Notes under the pieces: generated by a model | What the model saw: the letters and a program-made list of their open reading frames with translations, nothing else | What the model was told of the DNA's origin: nothing | Database searches by the model: none | Source of the DNA: a phage | Sequence record: PZ495249.1 | DNA: 64,000 bases | Strand: one strand, 5' to 3' | Shown: piece by piece, positions 62,895-64,000 of the stretch | Position numbering within the stretch: position 1 is the stretch's first letter | Layout of the letters: the number at the start of each line of letters is the position of its first letter | Translations under genes and position numbers: made by a program

Positions 62895-63482
62895 TTGGGG
62901 CTTTATTCGTATGGAGGATTTATGGGATTTGATGACATGTTGGACTATGAGGGAAACTGCGTTAAAGAAGCTCTGGCCTTACCAGAACTGGAGATCACCA
63001 TCACAGTGTATGACACTTATTCCGATTGTGAAACTTGCGGTGCATACTGGAGCAGAGTTCTTGAAGTAGATGGAGACTTAGGGGAATTCCAGAGTGGTGA
63101 TCGTGCAAGTTGTTTGGGTAGTAATGATGACGGTACTTATCACGAAGTTGCTCAATGGATTAACGCGCGACTTGAAGAGCATGGTCGTCCTGTTCCTGTA
63201 CTATTGACACCGGATGCAATGCTGCAAGCTGATAACGAGTATTACGCTCAAGCGGCTTTGGTGAACTATGATTATAATCATCCTTCGCTTGAGGCATTAG
63301 GACATAAAGCAGGTTGTCTGTCAGATGCTTTTGATGCATACTATACGTTAGACAGTCTGAAACGATTGTATTCTGCATTCGGTGTGACCATTTATGATGA
63401 TCACAAGGCAGATGAGGTTTACGATGCCAGCGATTGGGGCGATTATGAAGATAATGAGGAAGAAGAATGCCAAGACGACTGA
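62895..63482 (+). CDS. hypothetical acidic protein, 195 aa
   Basis: ORF with SD (TATGGAGGATTT); C-terminal DNEEEECQDD. Confidence 0.4.
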   Translation: MGLYSYGGFMGFDDMLDYEGNCVKEALALPELEITITVYDTYSDCETCGAYWSRVLEVDGDLGEFQSGDRASCLGSNDDGTYHEVAQWINARLEEHGRPVPVLLTPDAMLQADNEYYAQAALVNYDYNHPSLEALGHKAGCLSDAFDAYYTLDSLKRLYSAFGVTIYDDHKADEVYDASDWGDYEDNEEEECQDD

Positions 63483-64000
63483 TTGTAATTTCTGGTGCAG
63501 GACTTAGCGCCGATAGTGGTGTACGTACATTCCGTACCGACACCGAAAGTGGAAAAGCACTTTGGGACGAATACGATCTTGCAGAGGTTTGTGATATTGG
63601 AGCATTCCAAGCTGGCTATCGTCGCCGTACATCACCAGATGTTCCGGTTGTTGGTGGTATCGACGATGAAGGGATGGATCTGTACGAGAAGACAAACAAC
63701 TTCTACAACAAACGCCGTGTGGAACTTGCAACTGTAGAGCCTAACGCTGCACACCTTCAAATCGCTAAGTGGTTTGCAATGGCTCCTGAGCGTGTCTACA
63801 ACATCACGACTAACGTTGATGACCTGTTGGAACGTGCTGGCGTTGCTCGTGAATCTGTACTTCACGTCCACGGCTACTTACCAGAAATCCGTTATCGCTT
63901 AGAACCTGGTTCACAGGAACAACTTGTGGATGTAGGGTACGCTCATGTCGATATTGACGCATTCCATTGGACAAAACCTAACGTTGTGTTCTTTGGTGAG
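63467..64000 (+). CDS. Sir2-family (sirtuin/CobB-like) protein, partial at right edge
   Basis: GAGLSADSGVRTFR (NAD-binding GAGxSxxSGIPxFR), TTNVDDL (TQNIDxL-like) and HVHG motifs; frame open to window end. Confidence 0.5.
   Translation, partial: MPRRLIVISGAGLSADSGVRTFRTDTESGKALWDEYDLAEVCDIGAFQAGYRRRTSPDVPVVGGIDDEGMDLYEKTNNFYNKRRVELATVEPNAAHLQIAKWFAMAPERVYNITTNVDDLLERAGVARESVLHVHGYLPEIRYRLEPGSQEQLVDVGYAHVDIDAFHWTKPNVVFFGE

Follow-up and report, generated by a model that had tools for sequence, protein, structure and literature searches.

What does a sirtuin do in a phage, and how does its use of nicotinamide adenine dinucleotide (NAD+) relate to genes for rebuilding NAD+ in the same genome? 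The question is raised by a Sir2-family (sirtuin) gene at the right end of a 64,000-nucleotide stretch of phage DNA from sequence record PZ495249.1 (the window, at its full length). From the part of the gene inside the window and from its relatives, the encoded protein is almost certainly a catalytically competent, zinc-less sirtuin of the CobB/SIRT5 kind. The substrate can be named with much less assurance, and removal of acyl groups from proteins is weighed below against action on RNA and three other readings.

The open reading frame (ORF) is uninterrupted for 178 codons and still open where the window ends (Table 1); its translation starts MPRRLIVISGAGLSADSGVRTFR and ends KPNVVFFGE. The start had been given exactly in the preliminary description: with an in-frame stop only three codons before it, the ATG at 63467 is the sole possible one, and it is preceded by a Shine-Dalgarno-like GAGGA. 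The identity of the ORF as a sirtuin is far above chance. Pfam SIR2 (PF02146) matched the 178-residue fragment with E = 5.3e-16 and 59.5 bits (cut-off 24) and a full-length ortholog with 77.5 bits, and PHROG 2162, 'Sir2 (NAD-dependent deacetylase)', was matched with E = 3.2e-65 over profile positions 10 to 169 of 277. The three elements of the sirtuin signature by which the gene was originally recognized (GAGLSADSGVRTFR, TTNVDDL and HVHG) are all in frame.

Conservation was assessed in 120 homologs, including phi92-like, Phapecoctavirus, T5-like and Mydovirus proteins. Invariant among them are S14, S17, F22, R23, C42, F47, Y80, R83, R84, P92, N93, H96, T115, N116, V117, D118, H135, G136, K170, P171, N172, V173, F175, F176 and E178 in the fragment, and G203, S205 and N229 beyond it; G10, A11 and G12 of the GAG motif are kept in at least 90%. 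The NAD+-binding and catalytic residue set is thus complete in this family, and the catalytic histidine, for which the preliminary description had proposed a check, is present as His135 in HVHG. Searched with a profile, 1.84 billion representative proteins yielded 4996 relatives with E < 1e-3, of which 95 had E < 1e-30. In 137 of the best representatives, whose residues were counted, H135, N116 and G136 were invariant (137 of 137).

The zinc-binding cysteines, proposed for the same check, are missing. The segment that should hold them lies inside the window, and its 34 residues between HVHG and KPNVVFFGE (amino acids 137 to 170) include no Cys, so the Cys4 module is absent. Sampled members of the core family are likewise Cys-free here, bar a single Cys beside KPN in a few. 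Among the 137 representatives, 29 combine Thr115 with no Cys and 67 combine Gln115 with at least four, with a few intermediates, which places the window sirtuin in a zinc-less 'TTN' sub-clade derived from zinc-containing 'TQN' relatives. The only Cys of the fragment, Cys42, is invariant in the 120 phage-family homologs and present in 115 of the 137 distant representatives. It takes the place of Ala76 of CobB, a residue of the acyl pocket that has been mutated to alter CobB specificity. The 'V-x-P' substrate loop was considered as a marker of functional shift and rejected, since its Pro is replaced by Asn in zinc-containing and zinc-less relatives alike.

The nearest proteins of known structure are deacylases. 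The best sequence matches in the PDB were Escherichia coli CobB (1s5p and 6rxj, E ~2e-17), followed by Sir2Af1/Af2 and SIRT5. An AlphaFold2 model of the ortholog from Klebsiella phage KP13-26, made with 120 homologs (mean predicted local distance difference test score, pLDDT, 90.2), has the two-domain sirtuin fold, and its zinc-less small domain is modelled as a beta-sheet with a pLDDT of ~95. Compared with the PDB by Foldseek, the model retrieved CobB-peptide complexes first (template modelling score 0.85, normalized to CobB), then Sir2Af1 and SIRT5. CobB and the phage protein have GAGxS, FR, YxxR, PNxAH, NxD, HG, FGE and G-x-S in common at 26 to 28% identity. Unlike CobB, the phage sirtuin is without the Cys4 zinc site; it has TTN for TQN, Cys for Ala76, a ~22-residue insertion in the helical module and four extra residues in the cofactor loop. 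The YxxR motif that marks class III sirtuins is kept, FYNKRR corresponding to FYNARR of CobB and Tyr80 and Arg83 being invariant in the 120 homologs; these residues are presumably the counterparts of Y102/R105 of SIRT5 and Y92/R95 of CobB. Judged by sequence and predicted structure, the family branched from class III sirtuins of the CobB/SIRT5 type and is zinc-less.

The missing end of the gene can be judged from close relatives. The last 2 kb of the window shows ~81% DNA identity to Klebsiella phages FKP3 and KP13-26, which are Stephanstirmvirinae (phi92 group), and by this resemblance the window phage is a phi92-like, Klebsiella-type member of the Stephanstirmvirinae. Orthologs that are 92 to 97% identical over the visible codons are intact and 270 to 273 amino acids long, and by that measure the window takes in roughly two thirds of the gene. 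The preliminary description had placed the gene at the right edge of a phage; this is true of the window but not of the phage, because the gene of the relatives continues. In FKP3 and KP13-26 the sirtuin gene is intact (270 to 271 amino acids) and the last of a rightward block, after which come small genes that run the other way, and in phi92-like relatives it likewise ends a rightward block of early/middle genes. The KP13-26 ortholog (UYL04690.1, annotated 'cobB' and 'NAD-dependent protein deacylase') is 96.6% identical over the 178 residues, and the product of phi92 gene 038 is 72% identical to the fragment. In a collection of 15 billion proteins, the closest protein among the members listed of the KP13-26 protein's 90% cluster shares 173 of 178 residues; none of those listed is identical, so the unseen 3' third was deduced from orthologs. 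Compared with KP13-26, 57 codons differ synonymously and 6 non-synonymously, and the resulting ratio of non-synonymous to synonymous substitution rates (dN/dS) of 0.025 indicates strong purifying selection on the gene. The Sir2-like proteins of KP13-26, phi92, T5 and rV5 (PHROG 2162) have the same motifs and have lost the same zinc cysteines; compared with them, the window copy is a slightly divergent allele with no difference of substance.

The preliminary description was also right that the phage carries NAD+ reconstitution genes. In a phage, the NARP1 pathway is encoded by adjoining Adps and Namat genes (NARP1 paper), and Namat is told from Nampt by the signature GS-X-Phi-X-Phi-X-Phi-TRD, with aromatic X (PMC12774641). 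In the window a Prs-like gene adjoins a Nampt-like gene whose GSFTYQFNTRD exactly fits the Namat signature. The Prs-like ORF fell below the Prs cut-offs, as expected of an Adps. The adjoining Adps-like and Namat-like pair is therefore taken as an operon for NAD+ reconstitution by NARP1. FKP3 has an HNH endonuclease gene inserted between its two NARP1 genes; the window has none there.

Whether the sirtuin and NARP1 belong together was judged from their distribution. Of 50,697 phage records, 976 have a phage Sir2 homolog; most of these are from phages of Escherichia, Salmonella and Klebsiella, with many T5-like phages among the sirtuin carriers sampled. Nampt/Namat occurs in 2045 phage records, including those of Pseudomonas, Staphylococcus and Mycobacterium phages, genera that are not among the ten named for sirtuin-carrying phages; no T5-like phage is among the Nampt/Namat matches listed. 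On these differing distributions an obligate coupling of sirtuin and NAD+ salvage was rejected, and any coupling is therefore lineage-specific. In Erwinia phage Hena1 and jumbo Eneladusvirus, however, only 1 to 6 kb separates the two genes. The phage sirtuin plays no part in the NARP1/2/3 papers. The link between NARP1 and the sirtuin is circumstantial rather than obligate.

The specific mechanism best supported by homology, favoured here only tentatively, is that the protein may use NAD+ to deacylate lysines of host or phage proteins. It builds on the presence of all catalytic and NAD+-binding residues and on the predicted sirtuin fold. Expression would probably be early, from a sigma-70-type promoter. 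NAD+ would be bound in the Rossmann cleft and nicotinamide expelled, the ADP-ribose being moved onto the carbonyl oxygen of an acyl-lysine; His135 would activate the ribose 2'-OH, and the intermediate would be resolved to free lysine, nicotinamide and O-acyl-ADP-ribose. In SIRT5 and CobB the YxxR pair binds acidic acyl groups (succinyl, malonyl), and the retention of Tyr80 and Arg83 suggests that groups of this type would be accepted besides acetyl. The acylation of host or phage proteins would be reset by the sirtuin, and NARP1 would rebuild NAD+ from ADP-ribose and nicotinamide. The stoichiometric NAD+ cost of such a sirtuin would be affordable because the same phage encodes NARP1.

Several findings weigh against protein deacylation. 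The Cys4 zinc site has gone and the Gln of TQN has become Thr. The curated NCBIfam cut-offs for CobB are missed by a wide margin (equivalogs NF040867, 101.7 versus 243 bits, and NF001755, 82.2 versus 320; subfamily NF001753, 79.8 versus 318), and ~93 codons, going by the relatives, lie beyond the window. Co-occurrence of sirtuin and Nampt/Namat is not general, most Namat-bearing genera having no sirtuin. In four other phage lineages the sirtuin gene stands beside predicted RNA-end-processing or Nudix genes and beside nothing related to proteins. Finally, searches of the literature turned up no experimental characterization of any phage Sir2 family member.

Those neighbouring genes are RNA ligase, cREC, HAD_SAK or Nudix genes. 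From gene neighbourhoods, the main phage sirtuin clade was predicted to be KptA/Tpt1-like in RNA repair (Iyer et al. 2022, PMC9503650, section 3.7.3), in a module that sets the sirtuin gene next to RNA ligase, cREC, HAD_SAK, 2H or Nudix genes, and the contexts in rV5-like, T5 and jumbo phages were reproduced with Pfam. The rV5-like phage EmilHeitz encodes, one after another, a metallophosphoesterase, an AAA_33 kinase, an Rnl1 RNA ligase, cREC, the sirtuin and a homolog of the MazG-like protein of the window. A HAD_SAK_2 'RNA repair' phosphatase is encoded two genes downstream of the sirtuin in T5. In jumbo Eneladusvirus and Asteriusvirus a Nudt16-like Nudix gene lies directly downstream, in one case fused to cREC.

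On the main rival reading, which we regard as somewhat unlikely, the protein could transfer ADP-ribosyl groups to RNA ends or do the work of the 2'-phosphotransferase Tpt1/KptA. At the expense of NAD+, it would strip the 2'-phosphate from broken tRNA or other RNA during repair, or would attach ADP-ribose to the end of an RNA. The released nicotinamide and ADP-ribose cyclic phosphate would pass to cREC, HAD, metallophosphoesterase or Nudix enzymes for processing, with ADP-ribose that NARP1 could recycle. The analogy of sirtuins with Tpt1/KptA is a functional one, in that each uses up NAD+ and sets nicotinamide free; in Tpt1, ribose C1'' comes under attack from an oxygen nucleophile, and an attack by the ribose 2''-OH follows (PMC11417386). 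The anion-binding Tyr/Arg pair of the phage sirtuin could hold a phosphate. The fold of Tpt1/KptA is nevertheless unrelated, so the phage sirtuin is not a member of that family.

In the window, genes for cREC, a phosphoesterase and a MazG-like protein are kept at 29.9 to 34.3 kb, and there are 23 tRNA genes. However, the sirtuin gene is 33 kb from this repair-like cluster, and the Rnl1 ligase and kinase are missing from it. In FKP3 and KP13-26 the genes for Rnl1 ligase and kinase lie between those for the phosphoesterase and a DNA ligase. Compared with these phages, the genes for a 71-amino-acid hypothetical protein, the Rnl1-type RNA ligase and the AAA_33 kinase are cleanly missing from the window at the junction 31041..31044, where the phosphoesterase gene meets an ORF at 31041..31199 with the flanking gene order kept. 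No RNA ligase homolog was found anywhere in the 64-kb window. Rnl1-type ligases are also rare where the sirtuin is commonest, being found in 14 Salmonella phage records against 289 with the sirtuin.

The phage Sir2 family is strongly acidic (median isoelectric point 5.0, net charge -13), unlike nucleic-acid-binding transferases, and in both sequence and fold it is nearest to peptide-bound deacylases, with the FGE loop kept. The names cREC and HAD_SAK are themselves predictions by the same group that predicted the role of the sirtuin. We know of no sirtuin that acts on RNA, which also counts against such a role. The contextual case for an RNA-linked sirtuin is real but not compelling in this genome. 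A bolder version, that zinc-less TTN-type phage sirtuins are the first RNA-acting sirtuins rather than protein deacylases and run an NAD+-neutral cycle of repair or modification fed by NARP1, is unlikely. Such enzymes may remove 2'-phosphates, ADP-ribosylate RNA ends or use NAD-capped RNA, and trimming of their ADP-ribose-derived by-products may fall to cREC, HAD, Nudix or phosphoesterase activities before NARP1 returns them to NAD+.

Mono-ADP-ribosylation of host proteins or DNA during takeover, as by Alt, ModA and ModB of T4, by SirTM or by SIRT6-type enzymes, is an improbable function. No annotated macrodomain lies beside the sirtuin in the seven phage records examined, and 10 selected flanking genes from four of these records gave no match to a macrodomain family in Pfam. 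The class III deacylases are also far nearer to the window sirtuin than SirTM or SIRT6 are, and the acyl-peptide-binding YxxR and FGE elements are invariant.

The preliminary description, whose interpretation is supported in part, had also named exclusion of competing phages as a possible role and had noted the NAD+-consuming Sir2 effectors of bacterial immune systems. An NAD+-depleting effector of superinfection exclusion or abortive infection, like ThsA, DSR, SIR2-HerA or SPARSA, would fit a Sir2 domain on a mobile element. Defence SIR2 NADases (ThsA, DSR1/2, SIR2-HerA/Nezha, SPARSA, KomC and Avs5) have the Sir2 Rossmann core and the catalytic Asn and His in common with the phage protein, and they too are without a zinc ribbon. 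The TTN of the window sirtuin also recalls what we take to be their TTNYD motif. This reading was rejected because the PADLOC scan was empty, no defence-system family matching the window sirtuin at E values up to 1. The orthologs, moreover, are single-domain proteins of 270 to 273 amino acids with small unknown proteins as neighbours and no SLOG, HerA, pAgo, STAND or TIR partner. The window sirtuin is far from the defence NADases, and a role of this kind is very improbable.

That the window copy is non-functional, as a truncated or decaying gene (for which the preliminary description had allowed) or a catalytically dead binding protein, is hardly credible: only 178 codons are visible, the 3' third being beyond the window, and the zinc site is lost, but the visible frame has no stop or frameshift, dN/dS is low, the catalytic residues are all there, the zinc loss is family-wide with a small domain still confidently folded in the model, and the close orthologs are full length.

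Table 1. Positions in the window of the sirtuin gene, its sequence elements and the other genes and sites discussed
Feature	Position	Strand	Remarks
N-terminal sirtuin part, 178 codons	63467..64000	+	Pfam, PHROG; orthologs ~271 amino acids; 3' third beyond window
GAGLSADSGVRTFR, Rossmann NAD-binding motif and start of cofactor-binding loop, amino acids 10-23	63494..63535	+	
Cys42, sole Cys in the 178 residues	63590..63592	+	Aligned with CobB Ala76
FYNKRR, with Tyr80 and Arg83 of class III YxxR	63701..63718	+	Aligned with CobB FYNARR
TTNVDDL, amino acids 114-120; TQNxD with Gln replaced by Thr	63806..63826	+	Asn116 and Asp118 kept
HVHG, amino acids 133-136	63863..63874	+	Includes catalytic His135
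Small-domain segment (Cys4 zinc site in canonical sirtuins)	63875..63976	+	No Cys here
KPNVVFFGE, conserved sirtuin FGE loop	63974..64000	+	Window stops there
Prs-like gene, putative NARP1 Adps (ADP-ribose diphosphokinase)	27012..27947	-	Below every Prs cut-off; adjoins Namat-like gene
Nampt-like gene, putative NARP1 Namat	25245..26942	-	PF04095; NF006629, 446 bits; GSFTYQFNTRD at amino acid 450
cREC ('cyclic-phosphate processing receiver') gene	29943..30302	+	PF20274, 40.4 bits; homolog immediately upstream of rV5-like sirtuin
Phosphoesterase gene	30481..31044		Between cREC and MazG-like genes
MazG-like pyrophosphohydrolase gene	33547..34275	+	Homolog immediately downstream of rV5-like sirtuin
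195-amino-acid ORF, phrog_9509, function unknown	62895..63482	+	Stop overlaps sirtuin start by 16 nucleotides
Sigma-70-like promoter: TTGACA, 18-nucleotide spacer, TATAGT, TG	62839..62868	+	11/12 consensus match; ahead of two-gene unit

The 16-nucleotide overlap makes it probable that the phrog_9509 ORF and the sirtuin gene are co-transcribed, and together with the promoter-like site it points to a small operon that host RNA polymerase would read early. Early expression of the sirtuin is no more than suggested, since sigma-70-like sites are not enriched in the region. The upstream neighbour differs from that in KP13-26 and FKP3. KP13-26 is without phrog_9509, which is therefore not a conserved partner, and in FKP3 it is parted from the sirtuin gene by an HNH homing-endonuclease gene (7676..8326 of FKP3) that sits exactly between the two. 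FKP3 has many HNH insertions (in the terminase, for example, and inside NARP1) that are not in the window phage. The upstream ORFs match PHROGs of unknown function and one encodes a DNA methyltransferase-like protein; no conserved local partner of the sirtuin was found.

A second strong sigma-70-like site (TTGACA, 17-nucleotide spacer, TAAACT) falls within 60019..60081 (+), after a terminator-like hairpin at 60019..60036, and the two sites together suggest short early transcription units in the region. The gene that follows (60112..61041, +) encodes 309 amino acids with DUF7277 and DUF7275 (E = 4e-76; PHROG 2141, function unknown) and is kept in FKP3 and KP13-26. Further upstream, a NinI-like (calcineurin-type) Ser/Thr phosphatase gene (55784..56521, +) lies near one for a 'DprA-like' protein (PHROG 768; 56797..57369, +); the phosphatase gene of FKP3 is annotated as two split pieces. 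The tRNA genes occupy 18450..23838 (-) and include three for tRNA-Met(CAT). One of the 23 tRNA genes, at 22066..22140, has the amber-reading anticodon CTA and was called tRNA-Pyl by ARAGORN, and the same 'tRNA-Pyl' is annotated in KP13-26.

Vibrio-phage orthologs have been described by Skliros et al. (2016; PMC5107563), who noted both the loss of zinc ligands and the co-occurrence with NAD+ salvage, found the family kept in T5, My1 and other phages and proposed deacetylation of host enzymes; this discussion, like that of Iyer et al., was in silico. The window sirtuin is another allele of this already known and widely annotated gene family of about a thousand phage genomes, and the window holds no new kind of gene. 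A small new datum is a phage that has the sirtuin but whose syntenic site is without the genes for RNA ligase and kinase.

In large virulent phages of enterobacteria and Vibrio, sirtuins rank with the more widespread enzymes that have no assigned role. Their carriers are T5-like, rV5-like, phi92-like, KVP40-like and jumbo phages, many of which are candidates for phage therapy. NAD+ is now seen as a central battlefield between phages and bacterial immunity. Since the phage sirtuin would spend NAD+ in a genome that also encodes the means to rebuild it, the enzyme is worth a biochemical test.

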